DNA from: Escherichia coli
GTDB lineage: Bacteria; Pseudomonadota; Gammaproteobacteria; Enterobacterales; Enterobacteriaceae
Assembly: GCF_003018255.1 (NCBI RefSeq)
Contig: NZ_CP027440.1
Direction: 5' to 3' (one strand)
DNA length: 64,000 nt
This document shows, piece after piece, positions 45,352 to 62,138 of this stretch (positions are counted from its first letter, which is position 1; every line of letters begins with the position of its first letter). Position numbers and translations under genes: made by a program. The notes under the pieces were generated by a model. It did not search any database and was not told the DNA's origin. It worked only from the letters and a program-made list of their open reading frames with translations.

Positions 45352-48324
45352 TTACCAGTGCACTCCAATGGTGAGAAACGCGTTGTTGCGCTCTCCGTTA
45401 CGTTGATTAATCGCCTTAAAGGTATGTTGATATTCGATGCCGAGACTGACTTTGTGCGGCCAGGCGTCGTAGTGCGTCTCGCCGGTCCAGATATTCCAGC
45501 GGACCCCGACACCGCCAAGCTGCGCGCCCTGAGTGCCTTTATCACGATAACCGTTGTCCTGAACGTGAGCATAAGGCTCAATAGTCTGCCCGTTTGCCAC
45601 CTTCTGATGCCAGCTGACTCGATAATCTGCCGTCCACGCCTGAATATCCTGGCGGATATATTGCGCCGCATCGAGGTACAGGTTTTGGGCAAACCAGCCT
45701 GAACCGTTCGGGTGCCATTCGTCGCTGTATTTGCCGCCATTAAAGAATGAGGCGCTGGCGCGCAGCATGGTATCGGATGCGCCATTTTGTCCGTTCAGCG
45801 GCAACTGCTGTTCGACGGCGAGGAAAAAGATCTGATCGCGCAGCGGCTTCCAGCGCAGACCGGTGCCGGACATCGGATTTTTCACCGGCATCATCACCCC
45901 GTTTTCACCGGTATCGGCAAAGACGCGGCTATAAACTGAGAGCAGGTCGCCTTCCAGCAGCATATTGCGTCCGATGCGGTACTCGGCTTCCAGTTGCCCG
46001 TAGCTACGATAGCTTTTCCTTGGCGCTGCGCCGCCGACATTATTGTTAGCGGTACTCATTGCGCCGGAACGCAAGCCAATAGAAGAATCGAAACTGAACG
46101 TCCAGTGGCGACCGACCTCCTCATGCAGACGGCGGAAATTGAAGCGTTGCTGATTTTGCTCTGGGGTCAGTGGGGTTATCAGCGCCTGATTATCAATGTC
46201 ATCAATCACCAGTCGGGCGTAGTGCTGCGTCGCAGGCATGTCATCCAGACGCTGGTTCACGTAGGCCAGTTGTCGGATAAGTGCCGGATCGTCCGGTAGC
46301 CCTTTATGCGCCTGTTCGAGCATTTCCCGCGACTGTGCGATATCACCGCTATCCCACAAGGCGTAACCGAGCGCTGCCTGGGTGTTGCTATTATTCGGTT
46401 CCAGTTCCAGAGCGGCGCGCAAATCACTCACCGCCGCCGGGACATTATGACGTTGGCGATAAATTGTCGCCCGCGCAACGTAAGCGTTGGCAGAAGGCGC
46501 AATATTGATTGAGCGCGTGAGATCGCTCAGTGCGAGTTCCGGCTGACCAGGAATGTAACGTTGCGCATGCAGCCACCAGTAGAGGGCATTGTTTCCCAGC
46601 CCACGTTGTTCTGCCTGCTGAAGCCAGCGATCGCGAGCCGCACCATTTCCTGCCGCCTGGGCGGTATTGGCAGCAGCAAGCAGATCCTCATTGCTCATGC
46701 CGTGAAGACTGATTTTCTGCCAGGCCGCCAGTGCGGTGGCGTAGTCCTCAACCTGATACGCCTGATAGGCTACCGCACGATGTTGCCAGGCGTTCGGTTG
46801 TCGTTGTTCGGCCTGAAGCCATGCATACAACGCCACACCGGGTAGCGTGTCCCGATAACACTTTGCCAGACGGTTCCAGGCGGCAGCATCGTAGGAAGGC
46901 GACATATCGCCCAGCAAGCGAACTATTGCCGGGCAATTATCTGCAATACCCGGCAACTGACTTTGCCACTGACGTTGCTCCGCCAGCGGTAAGGGTTTCG
47001 ATAAAATCGCCACCTTCGCCGGAGTTGCCAGGTAAGGATGACTTTCCAGCAGAGACGCCAGTCGCGCCATTAAAGTCTGGCTGACACGCGCATCGCCCTG
47101 GAAAGGATAGCGTTGCAGCAATAAATCGGCAGCTTCACGTGACTGCTCGTTCTGCATCAGTTGCCAGGTCAGTTGATCCAGGCGGGTAAGATTTGCCGGT
47201 TCTTGCTGATACAGCAATCGTGCCAGACGCAGAGCTTCAGCCTTGTTACGGGTCGCCACGCTAACGGTATAACGCTCCTCAAGCATTTCATTGGCGGGGA
47301 GGGTGGCGAGCAGTTTTTGCGCTGCGTCGTACTGACCTTCTTTTAACAGCACCGGTAGCGTCGCGCCAACAACATACTGGCGGTTGTCGGCAAACTGTAC
47401 CGTATAATTCGCCAACGCCTGAACGGGGTTGCCGCTGTATTTAGATAACAGATAGAGCCAACTTTTCTCTTGTGCGTCCGTGGTAAATAGCGGCGTATTT
47501 TCAATGAGATAATGCTGGAGGCGTGCTTTTTCGCCACGATAAGCCAGCGCGGTCGCGTAAGTAATATATGACTGAGGATCGGTGAAGATCCCCTGTGATT
47601 GCAGCGCCAGGATCCGATCGTCCAGCTGCCCGGCAAGAAGCACATCAAACCACTGACGGCGTTCTGCCGCGCTTAATGTGTTCTGCTGGCGTGCTTCATT
47701 GTATAGCGTATCTGCCTGGGACCATTGTTTCAGGTAGATTGCCCGTTGCAGCAGATCGGTTCGCAGCGTTTTTCCTTCCGGCGATGCAGCAAACGTCGCA
47801 TCGTTCAGTTGCGCTCTGGCGACAGGTAATTGTGCCAGCCGCAGGGCATTCTGCCCGACTTCACTGCGACAACGCAGGGTCGGCGCAGCATCGCACGCTT
47901 TTTGCTGGGCAAGCAGTTCTTCAACAGTCGTAACGCTTTTCACTTCAACTGGAATAGCCGCCAGACTGCGCTCAAGTCGGGCATCTCCTGGGTGACGTTT
48001 CAGTTGATCCTCAAGCAACAGCCGCGCCCGGTCATCATGACCAAAATGGCGATAGGCTTCCGCAAGGTATAAAGTCAGCGGAATATTATCCGGCACCTGT
48101 TGGTGTATATATTCAAATTCGCGGATGGCGGTTGCTTCGTCGTTATTTTTCTGTGCCTTCAGCGCCTTATCGAGACGGGGATAAATAACAAAATGGCGAT
48201 AATCGCTCAGCCCCAGCTCTTCTGCGCTGGTGCCGATATTGTCTGCGAGTGCGCTGGTGCTCAATAAAGACGTCAGCAGTAAACCAGACCATCCGATGAC
48301 GCGATTAAGGTTATTCTCCTTCAT
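45352..48324 (-). CDS. nfrA: Outer-membrane TPR/beta-barrel protein NfrA (phage N4 adsorption / exopolysaccharide export)
   Basis: ORF 45352-48345; ~990 aa with multiple TPR repeats and a C-terminal beta-barrel; start taken at MKENNLNRV. Confidence 0.85.
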   Translation of the reverse strand: MKENNLNRVIGWSGLLLTSLLSTSALADNIGTSAEELGLSDYRHFVIYPRLDKALKAQKNNDEATAIREFEYIHQQVPDNIPLTLYLAEAYRHFGHDDRARLLLEDQLKRHPGDARLERSLAAIPVEVKSVTTVEELLAQQKACDAAPTLRCRSEVGQNALRLAQLPVARAQLNDATFAASPEGKTLRTDLLQRAIYLKQWSQADTLYNEARQQNTLSAAERRQWFDVLLAGQLDDRILALQSQGIFTDPQSYITYATALAYRGEKARLQHYLIENTPLFTTDAQEKSWLYLLSKYSGNPVQALANYTVQFADNRQYVVGATLPVLLKEGQYDAAQKLLATLPANEMLEERYTVSVATRNKAEALRLARLLYQQEPANLTRLDQLTWQLMQNEQSREAADLLLQRYPFQGDARVSQTLMARLASLLESHPYLATPAKVAILSKPLPLAEQRQWQSQLPGIADNCPAIVRLLGDMSPSYDAAAWNRLAKCYRDTLPGVALYAWLQAEQRQPNAWQHRAVAYQAYQVEDYATALAAWQKISLHGMSNEDLLAAANTAQAAGNGAARDRWLQQAEQRGLGNNALYWWLHAQRYIPGQPELALSDLTRSINIAPSANAYVARATIYRQRHNVPAAVSDLRAALELEPNNSNTQAALGYALWDSGDIAQSREMLEQAHKGLPDDPALIRQLAYVNQRLDDMPATQHYARLVIDDIDNQALITPLTPEQNQQRFNFRRLHEEVGRHWTFSFDSSIGLRSGAMSTANNNVGGAAPRKSYRSYGQLEAEYRIGRNMLLEGDLLSVYSRVFADTGENGVMMPVKNPMSGTGLRWKPLRDQIFFLAVEQQLPLNGQNGASDTMLRASASFFNGGKYSDEWHPNGSGWFAQNLYLDAAQYIRQDIQAWTADYRVSWHQKVANGQTIEPYAHVQDNGYRDKGTQGAQLGGVGVRWNIWTGETHYDAWPHKVSLGIEYQHTFKAINQRNGERNNAFLTIGVHW

Positions 48325-50548
48325 TTTCGGACTCCAGTTGCGCAACCTGTTCTGGGTTTAAACCTGCTTTGAGTAATAGTGATTGCATCGAAACTTGTAA
48401 TTCGCGTTGAATTGTCAGGACGCGATCCAACGTTTCCTGGCTGATAACGCCTTCGGTGACCAAAAACTTGCCGAGCGGCAGAGAACTGCGTTCATGGCGC
48501 AATAACAACACGTTAATTGCTGAACGATTAATATGACCGAGCGTGGTCAGTATTTCGGCGAACAGGAACTGATGCGGCACATATTGCCGCCAGATTTCAC
48601 CGGCCTGCTGTTCCGTGAGCCACTGATGCTGAACCGCATTGTACAACATTGCCCGCGGGTCGTGACCGCGTCGGCGTGCATACCAGTGACGTAACCCCGT
48701 GACAATTTGTCCGCGCAGAACAATGACGTAACGCACTTTGCGTCCGACTTTACGCGTCAGGGCTGCCAGCGAAACCGGGTCAATACCATCTTCACTGCCG
48801 ACAATTAACTCATCATTTTCCAGACGCAGCGGCAGCACTGCATAATGCAGCGCCACGGAAGCCGGCATTTCGGCAATCAGTGATGAAGGGATCTGCCAGG
48901 CGTCGATCGACTCCCACGCCACGCCGTTTTGCTCTGCCAGCGCCTGTGCCAGCTGTTCGGCGCTAATCAGCCCCTGCATCAGCATTGAACCGCCCAGGCG
49001 TAGACCTTCGACGCGATTACGCAGTGCTGTATCGAGTTGTTCTTCAGTGATGACCTGATTTTCCAGCAGGATTTGGCCTAACGGGCGCAACGAGCGGGTA
49101 TCGCCAGTCACGCTGGGGAAGTCATGCGTTGTTTTATCCCACGCGACGCGACGTGGATCGCCGTGTTGAAGTACCTGTTTTAACGCGCGCCAGTTGGCCA
49201 TGAAGTTAATCAGGTTGCCCCAGAAAAGACGCAGGACAGATAGCAGCCCCTGCGTCAGACCGTAGTAGCCAGTGACAAAAATCACCCGCTGCACGATGCG
49301 GTTAACCATCAAACCAAAGTTTAGCCACAGCAGGGTCATTAACCATGCGCTGCCGCTGAAAATAGAAAGGAAATGCCAGGCATCGGGCCACAAACTTTCA
49401 TACGCCAGTAACAGCAAAAGCTGGATCATCACCAGCATCGCGAGGAAGCTGACAAAGTTACTGATTGCCCCTTTGCGGTCGCGCCAGAGAAAGTAGTTCA
49501 GCGTCAGGCTGGAGGTCCATTTGTGGGTTTTAAAGCCCTGGAAAACAATGCCGATGATCCAGCGAGATTTTTGTCGAACCGCAGTCGAAAAGGTATCGGG
49601 GAAATATTCGCGCACGCAGATCATGTTTGACGTCCGCGCGTGCTGTAAAAATTTACGCTGCTCGCGTTCTTTGGCTTCGTCCACCACCGGAAAACGGACA
49701 AAAATTTCCGTCATACCTTTTTCTTTCAGGCGGAAACCAATGTCGTAATCTTCAGTCAGACTCTGCACGTCGAAAGCAATACCGTCACCGTCAGCTAACA
49801 GTGCGGTCACGGCGCGGCGGCTGAAACAGGTGCCGACGCCTGCGCTGGGCACCTGTCCGGCGAGGGCTTCACGCACCGGAACATCTTTGCCATGCAGTTC
49901 TGAAAACTCATCAATGTAGGTCATGCTGGTGAAGTGCGTCCATTCGCGTTCGAACGGATACACTGGGATCTGAATCAGATCTTTACGCTCGACCAGATAG
50001 TTGAACAGACGCAATTCCATCGGTGAAATCACATCTTCGGCGTCATGCAGAATAAAACCAGCAAAAGCGAAATTGGCGCTACGTTCAAATTGGGTGATGG
50101 CGTCCAGCACGTTGTTCAGACAGTCGGCTTTGCTGGTGGGGCCAGGACGCGCGCAGACTACCTTATGCACGTTCGGGAAGCGAGCGCACACTTCGTCAAC
50201 ATCACGCTGAGTATCGGGGTCGTTGGGGTAGGTGCCAACAAAGATATGATAGTTTTCGTAGTCGAGCGTGGTCGCCGCCAGCTCGGCCATATTGCCGATG
50301 ACGCCCGTTTCATTCCACGCCGGAACCATAATCGCTAACGGTTTTTCATCTGGTTTATACAGTTCGCGGTAACTCATTCGCGGGTAGCGGCGATAAACAC
50401 TCAACTTGCGTTTAATGCGGCGTACCCAGTAGACGACATCAATAAAAAAATCGTCCAGCCCGCTGATGAACATGATGACCGCTAACGTTATCGCGATTAC
50501 TTTTAAGCCGTAGAGCCAGGTAGCAAAAACATCAAGAAGCCAGTCCAC
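48311..50548 (-). CDS. nfrB: Inner-membrane family-2 glycosyltransferase NfrB
   Basis: 745 aa, N-terminal TM segments plus GT-2 domain and C-terminal regulatory domain; overlaps the nfrA start. Confidence 0.85.
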   Translation of the reverse strand: MDWLLDVFATWLYGLKVIAITLAVIMFISGLDDFFIDVVYWVRRIKRKLSVYRRYPRMSYRELYKPDEKPLAIMVPAWNETGVIGNMAELAATTLDYENYHIFVGTYPNDPDTQRDVDEVCARFPNVHKVVCARPGPTSKADCLNNVLDAITQFERSANFAFAGFILHDAEDVISPMELRLFNYLVERKDLIQIPVYPFEREWTHFTSMTYIDEFSELHGKDVPVREALAGQVPSAGVGTCFSRRAVTALLADGDGIAFDVQSLTEDYDIGFRLKEKGMTEIFVRFPVVDEAKEREQRKFLQHARTSNMICVREYFPDTFSTAVRQKSRWIIGIVFQGFKTHKWTSSLTLNYFLWRDRKGAISNFVSFLAMLVMIQLLLLLAYESLWPDAWHFLSIFSGSAWLMTLLWLNFGLMVNRIVQRVIFVTGYYGLTQGLLSVLRLFWGNLINFMANWRALKQVLQHGDPRRVAWDKTTHDFPSVTGDTRSLRPLGQILLENQVITEEQLDTALRNRVEGLRLGGSMLMQGLISAEQLAQALAEQNGVAWESIDAWQIPSSLIAEMPASVALHYAVLPLRLENDELIVGSEDGIDPVSLAALTRKVGRKVRYVIVLRGQIVTGLRHWYARRRGHDPRAMLYNAVQHQWLTEQQAGEIWRQYVPHQFLFAEILTTLGHINRSAINVLLLRHERSSLPLGKFLVTEGVISQETLDRVLTIQRELQVSMQSLLLKAGLNPEQVAQLESENEGE

Positions 50549-50745: not shown

Positions 50746-51882
50746 TTACGAAAGCCCGCTCCCAGCAAGGACTGACGCGAGATAGTTTCTGTCCATGGCT
50801 GCTTTTCGCAACTTACGTCTTAACCCTGCCTTGAATACCTTATCATTCGTCAAAATATTAATAGCGATGTGCCGTAGCCCTGAAAATAATTCTGCTGCAT
50901 TTCCTCTTCTTATTTTGCAGTCGTCTTCATTCATTACCACGTCCAGACGCCAGTGCAGCTTATTCTCCACGTGCCAGTGGTTTCGGATTGCTGTGGCGAA
51001 CTTCTCTGCGGTTAAATCAGCAGAACTGATATAATATCTGACCGTCATTTCTGGCTCTTTCTTTTGTTCTGCTATTATTGACCGAAAGGAGACTGCCACG
51101 CATAATTTCTTCAGTCCTTTCCATTCAAACGTGAAATCAATAAGTTCATCAGGGACATCGCAAACAATGTGAAGCCGGATTTCTTCTCTGCCGTGACTCT
51201 TTTCACTAATTGCGTAACTGTCATGCTCTGGATTATTTAATTCTTTCAGTGGGAATTTTTCCTCAAAGGCTTTATTAAGCCGCCCCTGATTTCCTTTTAC
51301 AGCGAATAAATAATCACCGCCCTGTTTTTGTATCTTCTCTGCAATATCTTTCTGGCAACCCATCGCATCAGTTGTGATGATTTTTCCTTTAATATCCAGC
51401 ATGTTAAGAAGTTCTGGGATAGCTGTAATCTCATTAGATTTCTCATCCGTCCTGATCTGTCCGATGACCAGACTGTGCATTGTTGAGAACGCACTAATGA
51501 CATGAATCGCTCCCCTGCGGCGACTCCTGTCATAAGAATGCCGGAGTGTTTTTCCATCGATTGCAATAACGTCTTTATCATCTGAAGTATGGCAATCTCG
51601 CATCCAGTTAATAAAGCACTCGTGAAATTTTGAAGGACTGATACAGGATACAACTCTGGCGATGGTATCGTGAACAGGAATACCATTTTCAAAATCACCA
51701 TATTGTTTTAAAAAATCGAGATGTGTTTCCCCAAAATCCTCTATATCTTCCCAGCCTTCTGCACCAGAAATAACGGCACAAATAGTCAACAGTAGAATAT
51801 CCGACAATTTATGTTCCACTTTCCAGGCTTGTCTGTAATCGGGGATAATAGAAATATGTTCCATCAATTTTTTAAGTTCCAT
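50746..51882 (-). mobile_element. ISAs1-family transposase (H-repeat-associated protein)
   Basis: 378 aa, [51 protein letters not shown]...; classic H-rpt ORF at the distal end of an Rhs element. Confidence 0.85.
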
Positions 51883-51908: not shown

Positions 51909-52147
51909 TATTTGATCATGTATACGCAATAAAAAACAGCTTCAGGTAATGAGGAATATCTCGATTTTTAAACATAAAATGCGAATTACTTAGTACAAAA
52001 AATGTACTTCTGATGATCTTTCCCTGGTATTTGATCATGTATAAGCAATAAAAAACAGCTTCAGGTAATGAGGAATATCTCAATTTTTAAACATAAAATG
52101 CGAATTGTTTAGTACAAAAAAGCAGCGTTACGTGATCTTTCCCTGGT
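51909..52147. repeat. Two tandem ~119-bp direct repeats
   Basis: tatttgatcatgtata(c/a)gcaataaaaaacagcttcaggtaatgaggaatatct...ctttccctgg at 51909-52026 and 52028-52147, ~93% identical. Confidence 0.8.
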
Positions 52148-52272
52148 GCAGGAACTGAGGAAGGAACTTTATCAGGTTAAACAGGTGGTGAAGGGAATGA
52201 AGAACGGGATATCCGGCGTATTACGCGAGGTATAAAAATAAAAGCCGGGAGATTGTCACTCCCGGCAACATA

Positions 52273-52556: not shown

Positions 52557-53180
52557 TTAAAACCTTGATGGAGTAATGGTGTATTCGCCAGGAGAGTATA
52601 TATCATTCAGCCAATCTTCATACTTTATACCAGAAGGATTCATATTATCAAAAACTGTATCACCTACTTTTATTGCTTCATGATGACCATTAGTTGCTAT
52701 ATTTTTACCTATTCTATCACTCCATATATTGCCAAAGGCACCTTGTTTATTTTTAGTTTCGAGTATGAGATGCTCACCATTTACCCCAGCTTGTTGCATT
52801 TTACTTTTTAACGCTGCGGCAAATTTATCGCATTGAAAAAGCTGTTTAAACTTATCACTTATTGTTGTTGCAAGATCCCTTGTTTTTGCGATATCGCAAA
52901 TGGTTAATCCTAATGGATCAATATAACCAAGGGGATTATGAACATATGCATAATTGTTTATCCCGCCTCTCAGCCCTATCGGGTCACTCACCAGGTACAT
53001 CCCTGTTTCCGGCTCGTAATACCGGAACCGGTTATAGCACAGCCCGGATTCCGTATCCTGCCACTGTCCTGCATACAGCAGGCCGGGGTCGGGGTCGGCT
53101 TCCGGGTCCAGCTCCCCGCGCGGGTCCGGGTAGCCGGTGTCTGCGGGCAGACTGAGTGCCAGCCCCCACAGGCTGGTTTG
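52557..53180 (-). CDS. Orphan Rhs C-terminal module (core end with DPxGL motifs plus ~115-aa toxin domain)
   Basis: In frame with the upstream orphan core but separated by TGA; reads ...YRYYEPETGMYLVSDPIGLRGG...YIDPLGLTICDIAKTRD... Confidence 0.55.
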   Translation of the reverse strand, partial: QTSLWGLALSLPADTGYPDPRGELDPEADPDPGLLYAGQWQDTESGLCYNRFRYYEPETGMYLVSDPIGLRGGINNYAYVHNPLGYIDPLGLTICDIAKTRDLATTISDKFKQLFQCDKFAAALKSKMQQAGVNGEHLILETKNKQGAFGNIWSDRIGKNIATNGHHEAIKVGDTVFDNMNPSGIKYEDWLNDIYSPGEYTITPSRF

Positions 53181-54476
53181 TCACGGTCGCCACACGGTTT
53201 TACCTTCACTGTTAAAGAGCATCAGCGGACGGCCCGTCAGGTCGCTCACCGCATGATTCGTCCGCGTCACCCACTGCGGGGCCACCGACGGATGCGGCTG
53301 CCGTACCCGGCTGCACTGCTGGCTTATCAGCTCAAAGCCGTTAAACACCAGGTGCCGTACGCTGTACAGTTTATCATCGCGGTATTCCCGGATTTCCGCA
53401 ATATTGTCGCCGTCCCACAGGTACGTAAAACGGATTTTCTTCCGGTCGCAGCGTTTTTCCGTCCGCCTGCCGCTGGCGTCGTAGCGGTATTCCCACTGCT
53501 CACCCTGTGCGCTGCAATACCCGGTCAGCTGGTCACGGCTGTCCCACCGGAACCGCTCTGTTTCCGGGCGGTAGCCGTCACGGTGTCTGGTGCGGCTGAC
53601 CATCCGGCCTGCGGCGTCATAGTCATACTGCGTGTTTCCGGCCTGTTTCAGCCGGTGGCCTCCGGCATACTGGTCAGTCTCTTCACTTATCCGGTGCCTG
53701 CCCGCAGACTGCGCCTTCAGGTAGCCACAACTGTCATAGCCATAGGACTCATCGCCTTCGCCATAGCCCAGCCCGGTGCCTGAGGCTGTCACCGCCGTGA
53801 CCTGACCGTTCCGGTCCAGCCGGTATTCCCGCCGTGTTTCCCGTCCGTAATCTTCCCGGCTGGTGACAGCCGACACATTGCCCGCGCTGTCGTAACGGTA
53901 CTCCCGTACCAGTGAGGGGAGCAGCCCGCCCCATGTGGTTTCCTCCGGGAAAAATCCGGCGCGCTGGGTGACAAGCTGGCTGGCTGCATTCCAGCCCTGC
54001 TCACAGGCAAAACCCCGGTTACTGTGCCGGAGCACTTCACGTCCTGCCTCATCACGGCTGAACGTCAGCGTCTCATCCCCCGGCAGGATAACCTCCGTCA
54101 GTTCTCCGGCGGCGTTGTAGCGGTAGGTGGTTTTCAGCAGGGATTCACCGGGATGTCTGTCGCGTTCATCTTCCGGTGGCAGGATACAGCGGATGACGGT
54201 GTGTTCATCGGGGTAGTGGTATTCAATGGCCCGTCGGCCCTGAGTGGTGACATTCACCCGCCCGCGTTCGTCATAGCCGGTGCGCTGTGATGTGCCGTCC
54301 GGGCTGAAGATACCCGTCAGCCTGCCGGATTTGTCATACGCATACTGCGTTTTGCCTTCCGGCGTGATGACTTCTGCCAGGCGGCCTGCGGCGTCCCGGC
54401 TGTAGAGGATGGTTTCCTCCAGACCGTTAACCCTGGCGGTACACAGGCCATCGGCGTCATAGCGGTAACGCCAGGC
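53181..54476 (-). pseudogene. Orphan rhs core fragment (duplicate of the 3' core of the main rhs)
   Basis: ~1.3 kb ~98% identical to 55589-56885; 5'-truncated; ends in the same in-frame TGA. Confidence 0.75.
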
Positions 54477-54503
54477 TACTCCGTTGTACCCAGCTCATAG
54501 AAT

Positions 54504-54926
54504 TTATCTAGCAATTTGTATTAAGGGGGTTTCACCCACATGTTTTAATAAACTCATTAACCAGATGGCCTCTTCTCTCGTTCCGGAGTATATTACCTTC
54601 GATTCATTTCTAATAATTCGAAGTGCTTCTTTTGTATCAATCGAAAAAGCCTTACGAATGACTTTTATAGTTTCCATCTGTGATTTTATATTTTCAAGTC
54701 TAACATTCCATAAACCCTCAAAATCAATCAATTGTAGACGAATTTTTTCTGGGGGAAAGCCTATATCATCTGATTCACTACGTAATCCGCAATTATGGCA
54801 TATAATTGATTCATACCATGCGAGTATACCATTGTGACTCGTCTGCCCTATAGCTATAGAACATATTTTTCCACAGCAAGGACACTCAATAGTCGTTTTA
54901 AATTCATCACCAAACACTATAACCAC
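54504..54926 (-). CDS. Putative immunity protein for the main Rhs toxin (Cys-rich zinc-ribbon-like)
   Basis: 140 aa, CPCCGK...CHNCG motifs; start overlaps the toxin stop by 10 bp. Confidence 0.55.
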   Translation of the reverse strand: MVIVFGDEFKTTIECPCCGKICSIAIGQTSHNGILAWYESIICHNCGLRSESDDIGFPPEKIRLQLIDFEGLWNVRLENIKSQMETIKVIRKAFSIDTKEALRIIRNESKVIYSGTREEAIWLMSLLKHVGETPLIQIAR

Positions 54927-55588
54927 CCTCTCATCCGCTTATATCTTCGAATCGTCTCGTAAAATTTCTGTTCCATCTCAGTACCTTTGGGATGATGATC
55001 ATTCAATCCTCGCTTCCACCACCTATGATGTAATTCTTCATGAATAATAACATCTCTTAATGCTGCACGAGACGAAAAACTATTTTTACCAAACTGAGTT
55101 CCTTCCCAAAGTTTAGCAATCCCTGTTCGCATAAACGGATTGTATTGAGGGATATATGTTAGTTTAAGATATGCAAAATCTTCTTTAAGTATGGCTGTAA
55201 TTGCCTTATTTCTGGCTCTGGCCGTAGAACCTGTAACATGACCGAGATCAGAAACATAAGTCTGTGGCCCTCTAGAAAACTCGACTGTTTTATTAATTAT
55301 ACTAGTTATAGCTAATCCCAGCGGATCAACATACCCACACGGATTAGGCACATACCGGTAAGTCTGCTCACCCCCCAGCAACCCCAGCGGATCACTCACC
55401 AGGTACATCCCTGTTTCCGGCTCGTAATACCGGAACCGGTTATAGCACAACCCGGATTCCGCATCCCGCCACTGTCCTGCATACAGCAGGCCGGGGTCGG
55501 GGTCGGCTTCCGGGTCCAGCTCCCCGCGCGGGTCCGGGTAGCCGGTGTCTGCGGGCAGACTGAGTGCCAGCCCCCACAGGCTGGTTTG
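54917..55588 (-). CDS. Rhs C-terminal module: core end (DPLGL...DPLGL) plus toxin domain with HExxH motif
   Basis: Same frame as the rhs core after TGA; QTSLWGL...LYAGQWRDAESGLCYNRFRYYEPETGMYLVSDPLGL...IIHEELHHRWW... Confidence 0.6.
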   Translation of the reverse strand, partial: QTSLWGLALSLPADTGYPDPRGELDPEADPDPGLLYAGQWRDAESGLCYNRFRYYEPETGMYLVSDPLGLLGGEQTYRYVPNPCGYVDPLGLAITSIINKTVEFSRGPQTYVSDLGHVTGSTARARNKAITAILKEDFAYLKLTYIPQYNPFMRTGIAKLWEGTQFGKNSFSSRAALRDVIIHEELHHRWWKRGLNDHHPKGTEMEQKFYETIRRYKRMRGWL

Positions 55589-58500
55589 TCACGGTCGCCA
55601 CACGGTTTTACCTTCACTGTTAAAGAGCATCAGCGGACGGCCCGTCAGGTCGCTCACCGCATGATTCGTCCGCGTCACCCACTGCGGGGCCACCGACGGA
55701 TGCGGCTGCCGTACCCGGCTGCACTGCTGGCTTATCAGCTCAAAGCCGTTAAACACCAGGTGCCGTACGCTGTACAGTTTATCATCGCGGTATTCCCGGA
55801 TTTCCGCAATATTGTCGCCGTCCCACAGGTACGTAAAACGGATTTTCTTCCGGTCGCAGCGTTTTTCCGTCCGCCTGCCGCTGGCGTCGTAGCGGTATTC
55901 CCACTGCTCACCCTGTGCGCTGCAATACCCGGTCAGCTGGTCACGGCTGTCCCACCGGAACCGCTCTGTTTCCGGGCGGTAGCCGTCACGGTGTCTGGTG
56001 CGGCTGACCATCCGGCCTGCGGCGTCATAGTCATACTGCGTGTTTCCGGCCTGTTTCAGCCGGTGGCCTCCGGCATACCGCTCAGTCTCTTCACTTATCC
56101 GGTGCCTGCCCGCAGACTGCGCCTTCAGGTAGCCGCAGCTGTCATAGCCATAAGTCTCATCGCCTTCGCCATAGCCCAGCCCGGTGCCTGAGGCTGTCAC
56201 CGCCGTGACCTGGCCGTTCCGGTCCAGCCGGTACTCCCGGCGTGTTTCCCGTCCGTAATCTTCCCGGCTGGTGACACCTGACACGTTACCCGCGCTGTCG
56301 TAACGGTACTCCCGTACCAGTGACGGAACCAGCCCGCCCCATGTGGCTTCTTCCGGAAAAAATCCGGCGCGCTGGCTGACAGGCTGGCCGGCTGCATTCC
56401 AGCCCTGCTCACAGGCAAAACCCCGGTTACTGTGCCGGAGCACTTCACGTCCTGCCTCATCACGGCTGAACGTCAGCGTCTCATCCCCCGGCAGGATAAC
56501 CTCCGTCAGTTCTCCGGCGGCGTTGTAGCGGTAGGTGGTTTTCAGCAGGGATTCATCGGGGTGTCTGTCGCGTTCATCTTCCGGTGGCAGGATACAGCGG
56601 ATGACGGTGTGTTCATCGGGGTAATGGTACTCAATGGCCCGTCGGCCCTGAGTGGTGACATTCACCCGCCCGCGTTCGTCATAGCCGGTGCGCTGTGATG
56701 TGCCGTCCGGGCTGAAGATACCCGTCAGCCTGCCGGATTTGTCATACGCATACTGCGTTTTGCCTTCCGGCGTGATGATTTCTGCCAGGCGGCCTGCGGC
56801 GTCCCGGCTGTAGAGGATGGTTTCCTCCAGGCCGTTAACCCTGGCGGTACACAGGCCATCGGCGTCATAGCGGTAACGCCAGGTCACGCCGCCCCAGTCA
56901 TGCTCTTCCGTCACCCGCCCACAGTTGTCGAGAAGATAACGGTATGACTCACCCTGCGGGTTGATGACTTCTGTCAGTTGCAGCGTGTCTTTATCATAGC
57001 GGTACTGCCAGCGGTGGCCTTCACCGTCCGTTCGCGCCACCGGCAAATCAAACGGGCCGTATTCCATTGTCCAGACAACGCCGTTACCGTCCGTGTACGC
57101 CAGCAGGTTGCCGTGGCGGTCATAGCGGAATCCTTCTGCGCCGGTTCCTGCCCGCTCAAGGCCGCTCAGTTTATGGTGCTGCTGCCACTGCAACCGCACT
57201 GACTGACCGCCGGGGCCGCGCATCTTCACCGGCAGGTCGTGACCACTGTATTCGGTGTGGTGTTCACGGCCCATCACGTCGGTGAGTGTTTCCGGCCGGT
57301 TGTGGTGGTCGTACTCTATGCCCAGACGCCGTTCATCCTGGCGGAATATCCCCGACAGCAGCCCCTGAGCGGTGTACGCCAGCCGGGTCTCTTCGCCCTG
57401 TGGCGATACCAGACTCACCGGCAGGCCGCGTTCATCGCACTGCTGTGTCCACGTCTGCCCGGCAGGGTCGGTGATGTTGCTGAGCAGGCCGCGCTCATCA
57501 TAGCGGTACAACCACACCGCGCCGTCTGCCGCCGTATAACGGCTTAACTGACCGTGTACGGCGTTGTATTCAAATTTCTCCACCCGTCCGGCAGGGGAGT
57601 GGCGGGCCAGCAGGTGATGGAATTCATCCCATTCATACGTGGTGGTGCTGCCGTCCGGCGCTTCTTCCCGCAGAATATTGCCGTCAGGATCATAGTAATA
57701 ACGGTGAATGCCCTTGCCGTCCGTCACGGTGGTGCAGCCGTCACTATAGTCCAGCGTGGCGTTGTAATAGCCGTCCGCCCCGGTGACATTCACGCACCGG
57801 CCCTGTTCATCGTAGGTGAAACGGCTCCACGTCTGGTCGTTATCGGACCAGCGGATGATCCGGTCCGCAGCGTCGTACTCATAAAACAGGTGGTAGTCCA
57901 GCCGCGCATCCGCTTCGGTCAGCCGCCCCCGCGCATCCTGTTCGTAGGTCGCCAGCGTCTGTATGCCGTTATCCGTGCGGTGAATGGCTTTCAGGTAGCC
58001 GCTGGCGTGGTACGTCAGTTTAAGCCGGATCCCGTCGGTGTGACTGACACCCGTGATGCGGTACTGGCTGTCGCGCTCAAACGTGATGCGGTTGCTGGCG
58101 GTGTCGCTCATCCCGCCCAGCATGTACATCCGGTCACCGGGGCTGTGTGCCAGGCGGTCATCATTGGTATCGTCAGTCACCGGGTGGCGCAGGCGCATTC
58201 CCGGAAAGGCGTCATAAAAGAAGCGGCTGCTCAGGGCATCACGGTCGAACAGCTCCAGGTAATCGTCGCGGCGGCGCAGGATATACTGGGCGTGATACGG
58301 GTTAACCGCCGTATCACTGTCTCCGTCGAAGGCAAAGTACAGCGTGGCTCCCTGGCTGATGATATCCACCCGGTTTCCCTGTTCACGCACCCAGGCGTAT
58401 TCGCTCCAGGAGTCGCTCCAGCCCACGCCCGTCAGGCCATGCAGTGGCAGTACAGAACTGTGGAAACGGGTGAAGGAGAGGGGGAGTGTCTGGCCCAGCG

Positions 58501-59728
58501 TAAAGTCGGTACGTTCGTCGCAGTATGCGCCGGTTACCGGATCGACAGGATCTGTTACCCATCTGATGACTTTATTGGCAATACTTTTTAACGACTTACC
58601 TGTTTTCCCCAGCAACGCGCCGAGCTTTGCCCCCAGCAGCTTCCCGCTTTTCCCCAGCAGGTTTCCCAGTTTGCCGAGTTTCGCCAGATTCCCCAGTTTT
58701 CCCAGCAGTCCCGCGGGCGGCAGAAGATAGCTGGCTATCGTTATTCCCCCCAGGATCATTCTCTGCCACGGCGGGAACTCCGGCTGGATATCCAGATAGG
58801 TCACCTGTTCACCGCCAATAAAGACGTCCGGCGAACCTTCCACGATTGCCGCGCTGCACTCCAGTTTGTCGCCCTTGCGCGCGGCAGGCTGATTGTTGAT
58901 AAAGACGTTGCTGCTGCCCTGGGCTATCCTCGGTGGTTTGTTCTCCTTGTCGCAGAGCGCCGTGTCCTCACCGGCTTCCGGGAAATCCACGTCTTTTTTG
59001 ATTTCGCCACGCCCGCCCACCATGGTGGCAAACTCCATTAATACCGGACCGGCGGGAAACAGAAGCGATGCGCCGGCGCTGACGCGATCCATAATACCGG
59101 CATTGCTGTCCGTCAGGGTGATAACAGCGTTCCCCCAGGCCTTCGCCAGTGGCACTGCTTTTTCCGCTGCCGATTCAAGCAGGTCAGTGGCAATATCCCC
59201 CCATGAAGGTTCCCCCTGTGGTGGAGAGGGTATTGCTTCAGTCAGGGGAGGAGGGGGAAGGGTGACGGCGGCCCTGGCTGCTGGCTTACCGTTAATTTTT
59301 ACGTTTTCAGAACCGGTATTGATGGCGCCGTCCGTGTCACAAAAACTGTTTATCCATGACTCAAGCTGGTTCTGTTTCTCCTCCACATAATCACTCGCCT
59401 TATAGCTGGCATACATCAGCGCAGGCACCAGAACCAGCGCATAAGGGCCGGTGGCGCAGGCGGCCATAATCAGGCAACCTTCTGCGATAGTTACTATCGC
59501 CCCCAGCACGGCCCCTGCCAGTGCCCCCAGAAAACTTTTATGCTGAATTTCATCGCCCAGCCTGGCGGCAGGTGGGCCGGACTTCTTTGCTGCCAGCATC
59601 TGTGCAATGGCTTTGTCGTTGGCTGCCCGTTTCATCTGGCTGGCGACCATCGCCTGCTGTGACAGCATTCGCATTGCCAGCGTACCGCCTGCGGTCGCTC
59701 CCTGTGGGCCGCCTGGTCCTTCACTCAT
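55589..59728 (-). CDS. rhs: T6SS Rhs effector: prePAAR motif, transmembrane region, PAAR domain and YD-repeat core
   Basis: 1379 aa; N-terminal AARLGDEIQH (prePAAR AARxxDxxxH), hydrophobic helices, PAAR-like segment, then YD repeats; terminates at TGA just before the DPxGL region. Confidence 0.85.
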   Translation of the reverse strand: MSEGPGGPQGATAGGTLAMRMLSQQAMVASQMKRAANDKAIAQMLAAKKSGPPAARLGDEIQHKSFLGALAGAVLGAIVTIAEGCLIMAACATGPYALVLVPALMYASYKASDYVEEKQNQLESWINSFCDTDGAINTGSENVKINGKPAARAAVTLPPPPLTEAIPSPPQGEPSWGDIATDLLESAAEKAVPLAKAWGNAVITLTDSNAGIMDRVSAGASLLFPAGPVLMEFATMVGGRGEIKKDVDFPEAGEDTALCDKENKPPRIAQGSSNVFINNQPAARKGDKLECSAAIVEGSPDVFIGGEQVTYLDIQPEFPPWQRMILGGITIASYLLPPAGLLGKLGNLAKLGKLGNLLGKSGKLLGAKLGALLGKTGKSLKSIANKVIRWVTDPVDPVTGAYCDERTDFTLGQTLPLSFTRFHSSVLPLHGLTGVGWSDSWSEYAWVREQGNRVDIISQGATLYFAFDGDSDTAVNPYHAQYILRRRDDYLELFDRDALSSRFFYDAFPGMRLRHPVTDDTNDDRLAHSPGDRMYMLGGMSDTASNRITFERDSQYRITGVSHTDGIRLKLTYHASGYLKAIHRTDNGIQTLATYEQDARGRLTEADARLDYHLFYEYDAADRIIRWSDNDQTWSRFTYDEQGRCVNVTGADGYYNATLDYSDGCTTVTDGKGIHRYYYDPDGNILREEAPDGSTTTYEWDEFHHLLARHSPAGRVEKFEYNAVHGQLSRYTAADGAVWLYRYDERGLLSNITDPAGQTWTQQCDERGLPVSLVSPQGEETRLAYTAQGLLSGIFRQDERRLGIEYDHHNRPETLTDVMGREHHTEYSGHDLPVKMRGPGGQSVRLQWQQHHKLSGLERAGTGAEGFRYDRHGNLLAYTDGNGVVWTMEYGPFDLPVARTDGEGHRWQYRYDKDTLQLTEVINPQGESYRYLLDNCGRVTEEHDWGGVTWRYRYDADGLCTARVNGLEETILYSRDAAGRLAEIITPEGKTQYAYDKSGRLTGIFSPDGTSQRTGYDERGRVNVTTQGRRAIEYHYPDEHTVIRCILPPEDERDRHPDESLLKTTYRYNAAGELTEVILPGDETLTFSRDEAGREVLRHSNRGFACEQGWNAAGQPVSQRAGFFPEEATWGGLVPSLVREYRYDSAGNVSGVTSREDYGRETRREYRLDRNGQVTAVTASGTGLGYGEGDETYGYDSCGYLKAQSAGRHRISEETERYAGGHRLKQAGNTQYDYDAAGRMVSRTRHRDGYRPETERFRWDSRDQLTGYCSAQGEQWEYRYDASGRRTEKRCDRKKIRFTYLWDGDNIAEIREYRDDKLYSVRHLVFNGFELISQQCSRVRQPHPSVAPQWVTRTNHAVSDLTGRPLMLFNSEGKTVWRP

Positions 59729-60236: not shown

Positions 60237-62138
60237 TCAGTTGATGAAAACAGAACCGCCCACGATGGTGATGCCATCCTTCGACAGCCTGATTACCGTC
60301 GATTCCCCGACCTGTAGCTGAATGCCATCCGGCGTCAGCGCAATTTTGCTTTCCTCCACGGCCAGCATAATTTGCTTAATTGCCGTATAAGCCTGTATAC
60401 CGTCGCCTTCGCCACCATTGTTTACAGCGTCAACATGCACTGAACCGGCAATCGTGCCTCTGTCCTGAAAAACATCCTCAGATAAAGACCCTTTTAGTAC
60501 GCCTGTGATTTTGTGGCCTTTTTCCACCGTAAGAAGGCGGTTACCTTCCTGGATCATGACCGTCTGGTCATTTTTTACGGTTTCGCGGTGATCGTGTTTT
60601 ACGGTGGTGGTACGGTCGTTGAGTACCTCGGTATCCATGTTCTTCTGGGCGTGGATGTAGACCTGTTCTTTCCCTGTCGCATCGTCAAACTTCAGCTCGT
60701 TAAACCCGCTGCCCATATATGTTTTGGAGCGGATGGTCATCTGCGTCTTCGTTCCCGGCAGGCTGCCCGGCGAGCGGTTATCTTCGTGGTAGGTGCGCCC
60801 CATAATGATCGGCTGGTCCGGATCGCCGTTGAGGAAGTCCACAATCACCTCCTGACCCACGCGCGGTATCGCCAGGTTGCCAAATCCCGGCCCCGCCCAC
60901 GCCTGCGCCACCCGTATCCAGCACGAACTGTCCTGATTGGCCGGGTTATAGCGGTCCCAGTTGAATTTCACCCGCACCCGGCCATGCTCGTCGCAGAAGA
61001 TTTCCTCTCCCGCAGGCCCCGTCACGACGGCGCTCTGCGGACCGTCCACTGACGGCTTTGGCTTCGGCTGAGGTCGCCACGTCCGGTCTGCCGGTATTAC
61101 CGCAAAGTGGTTATTCAGCGTGGTACCTGACCCCCTGCGTCCCGGCACCGCCTGCGGCTGTTCGCCGTGCAGTTCGCTCGCCACCACCTGCCATTCCCGG
61201 TTCAGGTTCGCCTGCGGATGCTCCGTCAGCACAATTCGCCGTCCAGGCCATATCTCCGGCGAGCGGCTCATTCCCCGCGCGGTTTCGGCGTTGTTTCGCC
61301 AGCCGTCCATCTGCCAGCGGGCAAAGTTCTGCCCGTGGGCGCTCTTGAAACGCCCGGGCCAGTCATACACTTCATACTGTGTGCGCTGGTAATCCTGATG
61401 CTGGCCTTCCTGGTCAAAACGTCCGGCCCAGCCGGGGCGTTTAAAGGTGTAGTCTTTGGTCACCACAGAGGAAGGACGGATTTGTGCGCTGTAGCGGAAC
61501 TGGCTGATGCAGAGGGTGCTCACCTCGGTACGGGTGTTCGGGTTCCAGGGGATTTCAAAGGATTCCGGCAGATAGCGGACCGTGTCGCACAGCACCAGAC
61601 TCTGGTCGGTACTTTTCTGCGCGTGCTCCTCATAGAAGAAGATGCCTTCCTCCGCTGCTATCCGGCAGAGAAAGTCGTAATCGGTTTCACCGTACTGGAC
61701 ACAAAACTCACGGGAAGGATGCGGCTCACTGAACAGCGGGCTCCACTCCGTGACGTCATTTTCCTGCAGTATGGTGCCGAGGATGCTTCTGATGTCCTCG
61801 TTCTGGAATATACGGAAGTTCTGACGCAGTCCTGCCCGCCACAGCGGCGGGCGCACCTTCATGCTGTACAGCATCTGGTTTTTGTCGTTCTCCCCGAGTT
61901 CAAACCAGGTCACCACGCCTTTCACCCGGCGCTGTACGTCATCGCCCTGCCATACCGTCAGGTAGGCCATTTTGTCCAGCACCTGCGCAAATTCAAGGGA
62001 GAGAAACTGCTGACTGACCAGAGAAAGGTCAAGGGAAAAAAGTGAAGAGAGTGACTGGGTGAGATGAAAGGAGACCACCGCAAAAGCGTCCGGTGGCAGG
62101 CCGTCCACTTCCAGTGTGAAACGTAATCCGGTTGACAT
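60237..62138 (-). CDS. vgrG: T6SS spike protein VgrG
   Basis: 633 aa, MSTGLRFTLEVDGLPPDAFAVVSFHLTQSLSSLFSLDLSLVS...; gp27/gp5-like VgrG N-terminus. Confidence 0.85.
   Translation of the reverse strand: MSTGLRFTLEVDGLPPDAFAVVSFHLTQSLSSLFSLDLSLVSQQFLSLEFAQVLDKMAYLTVWQGDDVQRRVKGVVTWFELGENDKNQMLYSMKVRPPLWRAGLRQNFRIFQNEDIRSILGTILQENDVTEWSPLFSEPHPSREFCVQYGETDYDFLCRIAAEEGIFFYEEHAQKSTDQSLVLCDTVRYLPESFEIPWNPNTRTEVSTLCISQFRYSAQIRPSSVVTKDYTFKRPGWAGRFDQEGQHQDYQRTQYEVYDWPGRFKSAHGQNFARWQMDGWRNNAETARGMSRSPEIWPGRRIVLTEHPQANLNREWQVVASELHGEQPQAVPGRRGSGTTLNNHFAVIPADRTWRPQPKPKPSVDGPQSAVVTGPAGEEIFCDEHGRVRVKFNWDRYNPANQDSSCWIRVAQAWAGPGFGNLAIPRVGQEVIVDFLNGDPDQPIIMGRTYHEDNRSPGSLPGTKTQMTIRSKTYMGSGFNELKFDDATGKEQVYIHAQKNMDTEVLNDRTTTVKHDHRETVKNDQTVMIQEGNRLLTVEKGHKITGVLKGSLSEDVFQDRGTIAGSVHVDAVNNGGEGDGIQAYTAIKQIMLAVEESKIALTPDGIQLQVGESTVIRLSKDGITIVGGSVFIN

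Follow-up and report, generated by a model that had tools for sequence, protein, structure and literature searches.

On the minus strand of the Escherichia coli contig NZ_CP027440.1, within the 64,000-nt stretch analysed here (the window), an rhs element encodes a type VI secretion system (T6SS) effector. Its C-terminal toxin tip belongs to the Tox-MPTase5 family (PF15641), and the tip is followed by the gene of a small cysteine-rich protein with a zinc ribbon. We consider it likely that these two genes encode a cytoplasmic zinc-dependent endopeptidase toxin and its dedicated immunity protein. In this strain, the effector is truncated by a TGA stop codon imported from a neighbouring orphan rhs fragment. 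Together with the intact allele of the sister strain JNE23-011, the locus offers a tractable E. coli T6SS example of Tox-MPTase5.

The toxin tip and its zinc-ribbon partner

The tip matched the Tox-MPTase5 model of Pfam over practically its full length (expectation value E = 1.4e-29; model positions 2-110 of 110), and the isolated tip matched the hidden Markov model (HMM) of the family with E = 5.2e-30. The same family was found in 21/21 tip homologs, which came from E. coli, metagenomes, a Blastocatellia bacterium and Streptomyces. Tox-MPTase5 was defined computationally by Zhang et al. (2012, Biol Direct 7:18; PMC3482391), whose table lists 'HEELH', a metallopeptidase fold, RHS repeats and, under immunity, '-'. 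An earlier note on this DNA had pointed out the motif IIHEELHHRWW in a tip of ~150 amino acids after the second DPLGL and had proposed a metallopeptidase-like toxin, but could name neither the toxin family nor that of its partner. The motif and the position of the tip are as described, and the proposed class of toxin agrees with the full-length family match and the predicted fold. The tip is shorter, however, with 131 amino acids, and its family has been named and predicted since 2012, by computation only. The partner is indeed without a family in Pfam and NCBIfam.

The HEELH motif corresponds to residues H91-E92-E93-L94-H95 of the tip. All five are invariant in the 21 homologs, as are H96, R97, W98, W99, G102, H107, F117, Y118, Y124, M127, R128, G129 and W130, while H106 and E114 are nearly invariant. 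A chance occurrence of HExxH, which the earlier note had allowed for in case the domain proved to be a nuclease or deaminase, is ruled out by this invariance and by the Pfam match at an E of 1e-29; no nuclease or deaminase family was matched. H96 is unlikely to be a metal ligand, because two homologs outside the alignment of 21 have N or Q at this position.

In the AlphaFold2 model of the tip (predicted local distance difference test, pLDDT, 88.8), HEELH lies in a helix spanning residues 82-100 of a zincin-like alpha+beta fold. As modelled, the tip is a minimal zincin fold. This agrees with an independent family-embedding study that places Tox-MPTase5 near DUF4157, WLM and SprT (PMC11467057). 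A search of the toxin profile against the sequences of the PDB gave nothing up to an E of 1. Peptidase_U49 was not among the listed Pfam matches, and no comparison of the tip with the Lit protease of prophage e14 was made. The tip is very basic, with an isoelectric point (pI) of 10.1 and a net charge of +10, and the family median pI is 9.9. The homologous domains stand at the C-terminus of frames of 1200-2134 codons, and also at that of a Streptomyces Rhs protein. Many metagenomic toxin ORFs (open reading frames) are short (120-215 amino acids) and carry varied glycine-rich N-termini instead of Rhs repeats.

Directly behind the tip lies the gene of the cysteine-rich protein. Counted from its first GTG, the ORF (54504-54926) has 140 codons, the length reported in the earlier note. 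RefSeq starts the gene at the GTG at 54917, which gives 137 amino acids, a TAGTG overlap with the toxin stop (TAG at 54917-54919) and a GAGGG 8 nt upstream. The two cysteine pairs that had caught attention are C12-P-C-C15 and C40-H-N-C43. In an alignment of 60 homologs, C12, C15 and C40 never vary, and conservation reaches at least 90% at C43, L32, W34, E48, D50, G53, P56, R60, G68, W70, G112, T113 and E116. The most conserved motif, G-T-x-x-E-x-x-W, is specific to the family.

The earlier note described this partner as zinc-ribbon-like. A Cys4 ribbon is present, but it makes up only part of the protein. In the AlphaFold2 model (pLDDT 96.1), residues 6-52 form a four-stranded zinc ribbon and residues 57-135 an alpha/beta domain. 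Searches with Pfam and NCBIfam assigned no family; below threshold, the ribbon resembled those of Elf1, ZPR1, Lar and the Cas12f TNB domain, and the protein also resembled the C-terminal domain (CTD) of Ribosomal_L12. The family profile matched bL12 in the PDB at E = 3e-5 to 2e-4, with the alignment confined to the CTD-like part (profile positions 63-131). For ClpS no sequence match was found, while its fold score equals that of bL12. The C-terminal half of the immunity protein is thus a bL12-CTD/ClpS-like domain. We rejected the idea that the protein is a true bL12 ortholog, since only the CTD-like part aligns and the N-terminus is a Cys4 zinc ribbon; the N-terminal dimerisation/uL10-binding domain and the hinge of bL12 are both missing.

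This partner family is widespread. When 1.84 billion representatives were searched exhaustively with HMMER, 418 cluster representatives matched at E up to 1e-3, and 126 at E up to 1e-10, mostly of 130-150 amino acids. A word-indexed search had returned 2 clusters and misled us into considering the family very narrow. One candidate, a repetitive protein of 4434 amino acids with 10 apparent family stretches (P0105), was discarded as an unrelated false positive that the family HMM does not match. Foldseek against AFDB50 retrieved at least 120 clusters with the same two-domain fold from many phyla. Nearly all of these are called "uncharacterized", and a few are automatically named L7/L12 C-terminal or ClpS core domain. 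None of Pfam, NCBIfam and the 2012 catalogue gives the family a name, and the searchable literature yielded no description of it. Likewise, our literature search for bL12-like or ClpS-like immunity proteins returned only unrelated L12-ClpS contexts. The 418 cluster representatives could help to annotate many "hypothetical" and orphan immunity genes.

The association between toxin and partner extends far beyond E. coli. In a toxin-led scan with one genome per species, we found 26 Tox-MPTase5 loci, of which 24 had a contig that continued past the toxin. The HMM of the immunity family matched directly downstream of the toxin in 22 of these 24. The 26 loci came from Dyella, Massilia, Variovorax, Tahibacter, Pseudomonas, Aliikangiella, Thiotrichaceae, Desulfobacterales, Planctomycetaceae, Lachnospiraceae and other Clostridia, Streptomyces and Nocardiopsis. 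The same arrangement occurs in metagenomic loci (L003-L008, L012) and in a Streptomyces locus where the ORF had not been called.

Sampling from the side of the immunity family gave a consistent picture. Among distant homologs at 25-40% identity, three were located behind Tox-MPTase5, one behind a 43-aa toxin remnant, "MIHEELHHRWWKRG...RMRGWE" (L040 3315-3856), and one behind another small non-toxin gene, while one was solitary. Even homologs at only 25-30% identity still follow Tox-MPTase5 or its remnant. Tandem and fused forms of the immunity protein exist as well; for instance, P0024 is a tandem duplicate of the domain within one 292-aa protein. Judged by its gene neighbourhoods, the cysteine-rich family behaves as a dedicated immunity family does. 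The immunity gene outlives the toxin, being intact after the remnant in L040 and solitary in L010 and L011. Across phyla, toxins share 45-69% identity in the alignment of the 21 homologs (mostly 55-68%), versus 22-45% for the immunity proteins. The 55-68% range of the toxin spans E. coli, Lachnospiraceae, Streptomyces and Planctomycetes.

A premature stop copied from an adjacent orphan fragment

Read over its premature stop, the conceptual Rhs frame runs from 59728 to 54920 on the minus strand and comprises 1603 codons. An in-frame TGA occupies codon 1380, ahead of the plug/protease region and 92 codons before the cleavage site. The reading frame that joins shell, plug and toxin is therefore interrupted in the window, whereas it is uninterrupted in JNE23-011 (WP_456287228.1). 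The earlier note was silent on this stop, although the upper end of the piece it described (55588) directly adjoins the TGA.

The stop has a nearby source. Between the toxin cassette and a second, papain-fold tip lies an orphan Rhs core fragment (Table 1), which bears the same stop. Over 55468-56078, the main and orphan copies show no mismatch, whereas 32-40 positions differ in the remainder of their ~1.5-kb repeat. In JNE23-011, the locus is laid out in the same way and shares 99.6% identity with the window over 11.5 kb, but only the orphan carries the stop; of the 45 differing alignment columns over these 11.5 kb, 21 fall within 55450-55700. From the 611-bp identity to the orphan and the clustering of 21/45 differences in this region, it follows that a conversion tract of at most 611 bp copied the TGA from the orphan into the main gene. 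The stop position holds GGA or GGG (Gly) in E. coli W and a G-initial codon in the intact gene of JNE23-011. Both Rhs copies in the window also have 6 extra bases compared to JNE23-011 (55501-55506 and 53093-53098), which add one more Asp-Pro unit to the ...EADPDPG... linker.

A sequencing error can be ruled out, because the exact 61-mer with the TGA is present in three independent complete genomes (3/5426 complete E. coli genomes). In DETEC-S792, RefSeq lists the gene, which is 99.2% identical, as a pseudogene interrupted by an internal stop; each of the four Rhs pieces of that strain carries the TGA. Here, an orphan rhs fragment inactivates the main effector by a short conversion tract; better known is the opposite case, in which an orphan tip takes the place of the main one. 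The effector ends before its plug, protease and toxin regions, and delivery of the toxin is therefore improbable in this strain. The immunity gene is intact, and would still protect the strain against kin that fire the toxin.

Delivery, proposed mode of action and alternative readings

The upstream part of the locus contains genes for T6SS delivery. Within the first 420 amino acids of the Rhs protein, Pfam detected prePAAR_I (E = 4e-05), PAAR_motif (E = 2.6e-10) and DUF6531, and the NCBIfam model Rhs_assc_core (TIGR03696) matched the C-terminal core at E = 2.9e-12. The annotations of vgrG and of the Eag-type chaperone gene were borrowed from genomes that share 99.2-99.6% identity with the window. 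Class I prePAAR Rhs effectors depend on Eag chaperones (PMC7773334). Judging by its domains, and except for the interrupted frame, the Rhs protein is a class I prePAAR effector as Ahmad et al. define it. For prePAAR effectors with characterised toxins, the site of action is the cytoplasm (PMC7773334). No signal peptide was predicted on the immunity protein. A cytoplasmic target is suggested because the immunity protein lacks a signal peptide and has a Cys4 site, and because of the prePAAR/Eag context.

In the intact version, of the JNE23-011 type, the Rhs shell would enclose the tip. DPLGL occurs at codons 1446-1450 and 1468-1472 of the conceptual Rhs protein, with the spacing DPxG-x18-DPxG. 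By analogy with Photorhabdus Rhs1, the model for the PxxxxDPxGL motif and aspartyl autocleavage (PMC8636562), an aspartyl autoprotease would cut after the second DPLGL and release the tip. The assembly of VgrG, Eag and PAAR would carry the effector into a neighbouring cell. In the cytoplasm of that cell, the tip would act as a zinc-dependent hydrolase, most probably an endopeptidase, with H91, H95 and either H107 or E114 as metal ligands and E92 as general base. Its substrate may be an essential, widely conserved cytoplasmic protein. The immunity protein presumably binds and blocks the toxin one to one.

Several points weigh against this proposal. H107, H106 and E114 are all candidates for the third metal ligand. 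For the Tox-MPTase5 family as a whole, zinc binding, peptidase chemistry and toxicity are predictions; in the searchable literature, Tox-MPTase5 or PF15641 is mentioned in silico only. Binding and neutralisation of the toxin by its partner are read from gene order. In E. coli, a UGA with C as the next base is a leaky stop, so a little full-length protein might be produced. In addition, the structural score of the tip against YbeY equals its scores against proteases. The tip might accordingly be a metal-dependent nuclease, such as a YbeY-like endoribonuclease or a nucleic-acid-dependent enzyme, that cuts rRNA, tRNA or DNA. Such an activity would fit the other top structural matches, Spartan, Wss1 and ArdC, which are DNA-associated enzymes, as well as the very basic tip with its invariant R-W-W and R-M-R-G-W motifs. 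YbeY, however, lacks the catalytic Glu of HExxH in its H3xH5xH motif, which is of the HGxLH type, and this Glu is invariant in the tip family. Moreover, the Pfam scans of the 21 homologs found no nuclease family. We therefore regard a nuclease, the main rival reading, as unlikely. Similarly, we give little credence to a cassette that is still active in this strain, either by UGA readthrough or from an internal start that would turn it into an intracellular toxin-antitoxin-like module. The TGAC context at the stop is compatible with this idea, as are an ORF from a TTG at 55450 that spans the DPLGL region and the tip, and the fact that the TGA allele persists in three complete genomes and, within DETEC-S792, in each of the four Rhs pieces. 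Rhs elements that act as toxin-antitoxin modules are reported for orphan Rhs of Salmonella (PMC7043789). Yet a promoter and terminator scan of 54300-55800 gave nothing above the shuffled expectation, and hence no evidence of an internal promoter; a product starting past the stop would lack PAAR and shell and could not be secreted; and RefSeq calls the allele a pseudogene.

Alternative roles of the cysteine-rich protein were considered as well. It could be an accessory factor instead of an inhibitor, for example a regulator, an activator of the toxin or a zinc-ribbon protein that binds nucleic acids. Its weak ribbon similarity to Elf1, Lar, ZPR1 and the Cas12f TNB domain would agree with such a role, and L12/ClpS domains do occur in non-immunity contexts of conflict systems. 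But an accessory factor seems highly improbable, because four features of the gene are all typical of immunity genes: its place directly 3' of the toxin with a stop/start overlap, which is the rule for Rhs immunity genes; its persistence where the toxin is a 43-aa remnant or absent; its tandem duplication in P0024; and its position, in one locus, next to another non-toxin and possibly immunity gene. Possibly, the bL12-like half of the immunity protein serves as a decoy that mimics the target, in which case Tox-MPTase5 would dock on bL12 and perhaps cleave it, or act at the stalk/GTPase-associated centre. The profile match to the bL12 CTD (E = 3e-5) speaks for this idea, and so do the extremely basic toxin facing an acidic bL12 and the unusual conservation of the toxin between phyla (55-68% identity), which a universal target would lead one to expect. 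The positions equivalent to bL12 K70, R73 and E82, residues of its translation-factor-binding face, show K in 54%, R in 76% and an acidic residue (E or D) in 71% of 142 homologs. Still, the L12/ClpS domain is a small module that is widely reused, also in unrelated conflict systems; the fold score of ClpS equals that of bL12; and the strongest conservation is found in the family-specific GTxxExxW motif. On balance, we consider a decoy rather improbable. If true, it would imply a ribosome-directed protease toxin with immunity by target mimicry, and the resemblance to bL12 offers a concrete, testable idea of the target. A cytoplasmic endopeptidase toxin with a dedicated immunity protein thus remains the reading that we favour.

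Related systems and the surrounding locus

Compared to Tox-MPTase5 as catalogued in 2012, nothing differs in the toxin domain itself: the full-length HMM match, the exact HEELH, the C-terminal position after Rhs repeats and the zincin-like fold are all shared. The differences are found around the domain. The 2012 table lists type II secretion as delivery and '-' as immunity (PMC3482391), whereas the locus studied here combines a prePAAR/PAAR T6SS Rhs protein with a conserved immunity family. SprT/Spartan, Wss1 (WLM) and ArdC, which belong to Pfam clan MA, share only 9-15% identity with the tip and are not matched through Pfam. These are proteases that act on DNA-protein crosslinks or are otherwise DNA-associated, and serve their own cell, in contrast to a secreted interbacterial toxin with an immunity protein.

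Another comparison concerns the Tox-MPTase4 Rhs tips of E. coli, for example of STEC004 and O104:H4, with immunity protein Cti1. They too are HExxH zincin-like tips of T6SS Rhs proteins, encoded in vgrG islands with an immunity gene after the tip. However, Tox-MPTase4 is PF15640 and has a different immunity protein, whereas our tip is PF15641. Furthermore, Tox-MPTase4 is said to act on membrane and cell wall (10.1101/2024.03.05.583533), while our evidence points to the cytoplasm. The C-terminal metallopeptidase of Pseudomonas aeruginosa VgrG2b is likewise a T6SS-delivered antibacterial toxin with an HExxH zinc site; it is reported to act in the periplasm and forms part of the spike protein itself (PMC6899460). 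This differs from our tip, which has an Rhs carrier and an immunity protein without signal peptide, and would act in the cytoplasm.

Among 5426 complete E. coli genomes, 20 carry the toxin-immunity cassette, and its position varies. In E. coli W and related strains, the cassette stands as an orphan module after a main Rhs gene with a different tip and an Imm26 immunity gene. Hence, the same cassette takes the main or the orphan position depending on the strain. At the E. coli W locus (L002 7500-10111 and 10145-12157), the Tox-MPTase5 module is followed by another orphan, whose annotation is that of a zincin-like metallopeptidase toxin.

The coordinates of the element are given in Table 1. Its G+C content is 0.60-0.67 in the Rhs core versus 0.33-0.38 over the tip and immunity gene, a discontinuity between core and tip that is usual for rhs genes (PMC8636562).

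Table 1. Features of the rhs element in the window, ordered from the vgrG side
Feature	Position	Strand	Basis or remark
vgrG (T6SS spike), 633 amino acids (aa)	60237..62138	-	ORF; annotated as type VI secretion Vgr family protein in JNE23-011
Eag-type chaperone (DcrB-related / DUF1795), 153 aa	59748..60209	-	ORF; DcrB-related annotation in sister genomes
Rhs effector: prePAAR, transmembrane region, PAAR, YD-repeat shell; 1379 codons to stop	55592..59728	-	ORF + Pfam
In-frame TGA (WRP*QTSLWG)	55589..55591	-	
611-bp stretch identical to adjacent orphan Rhs fragment	55468..56078	-	Contains the TGA-carrying conversion tract
Rhs C-terminal core (plug / aspartyl autoprotease region), 92 codons, ends DPLG-x18-DPLGL	55313..55588	-	TIGR03696 match
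Toxin tip, 131 aa, predicted Tox-MPTase5 zincin-like domain	54920..55312	-	HEELH codons 55028-55042
Cognate immunity gene, 137 aa: Cys4 zinc ribbon + bL12-CTD/ClpS-like domain	54504..54917	-	
Orphan Rhs core fragment with the same TGA (53181-53183), fused to papain-fold tip (52557-53000)	52557..54484	-	
Putative immunity gene of the orphan papain-fold tip, 93 aa	52273..52554	-	ORF; hypothetical protein in sister annotations

The orphan papain-fold tip and the 93-aa gene behind it, both on the minus strand, are also low in G+C (0.31-0.38). In sister strains, the orphan is annotated as 'RHS ... internal stop' plus 'papain fold toxin domain-containing protein'; an NCBIfam search with the 93-aa protein gave no family. 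A stretch on the plus strand (~52140-52247), between this putative immunity gene and ISEc1, aligns to a remnant of a SymE-family type I toxin gene in JNE23-011 that lacks its N-terminus. The rhs element is bounded by an intact gene for a 378-aa ISAs1/ISEc1 (H-repeat) transposase (50746-51882, minus strand). In JNE23-011, the annotation of this gene shows an internal stop, and 5/45 of the differences between the two strains lie within it. Adjoining the element are nfrB and nfrA, the phage N4 adsorption genes (45352-50548, minus strand). On the vgrG side, sister genomes carry cusS and cusR, which identifies the locus as the cus-nfr intergenic T6SS vgrG island of E. coli.

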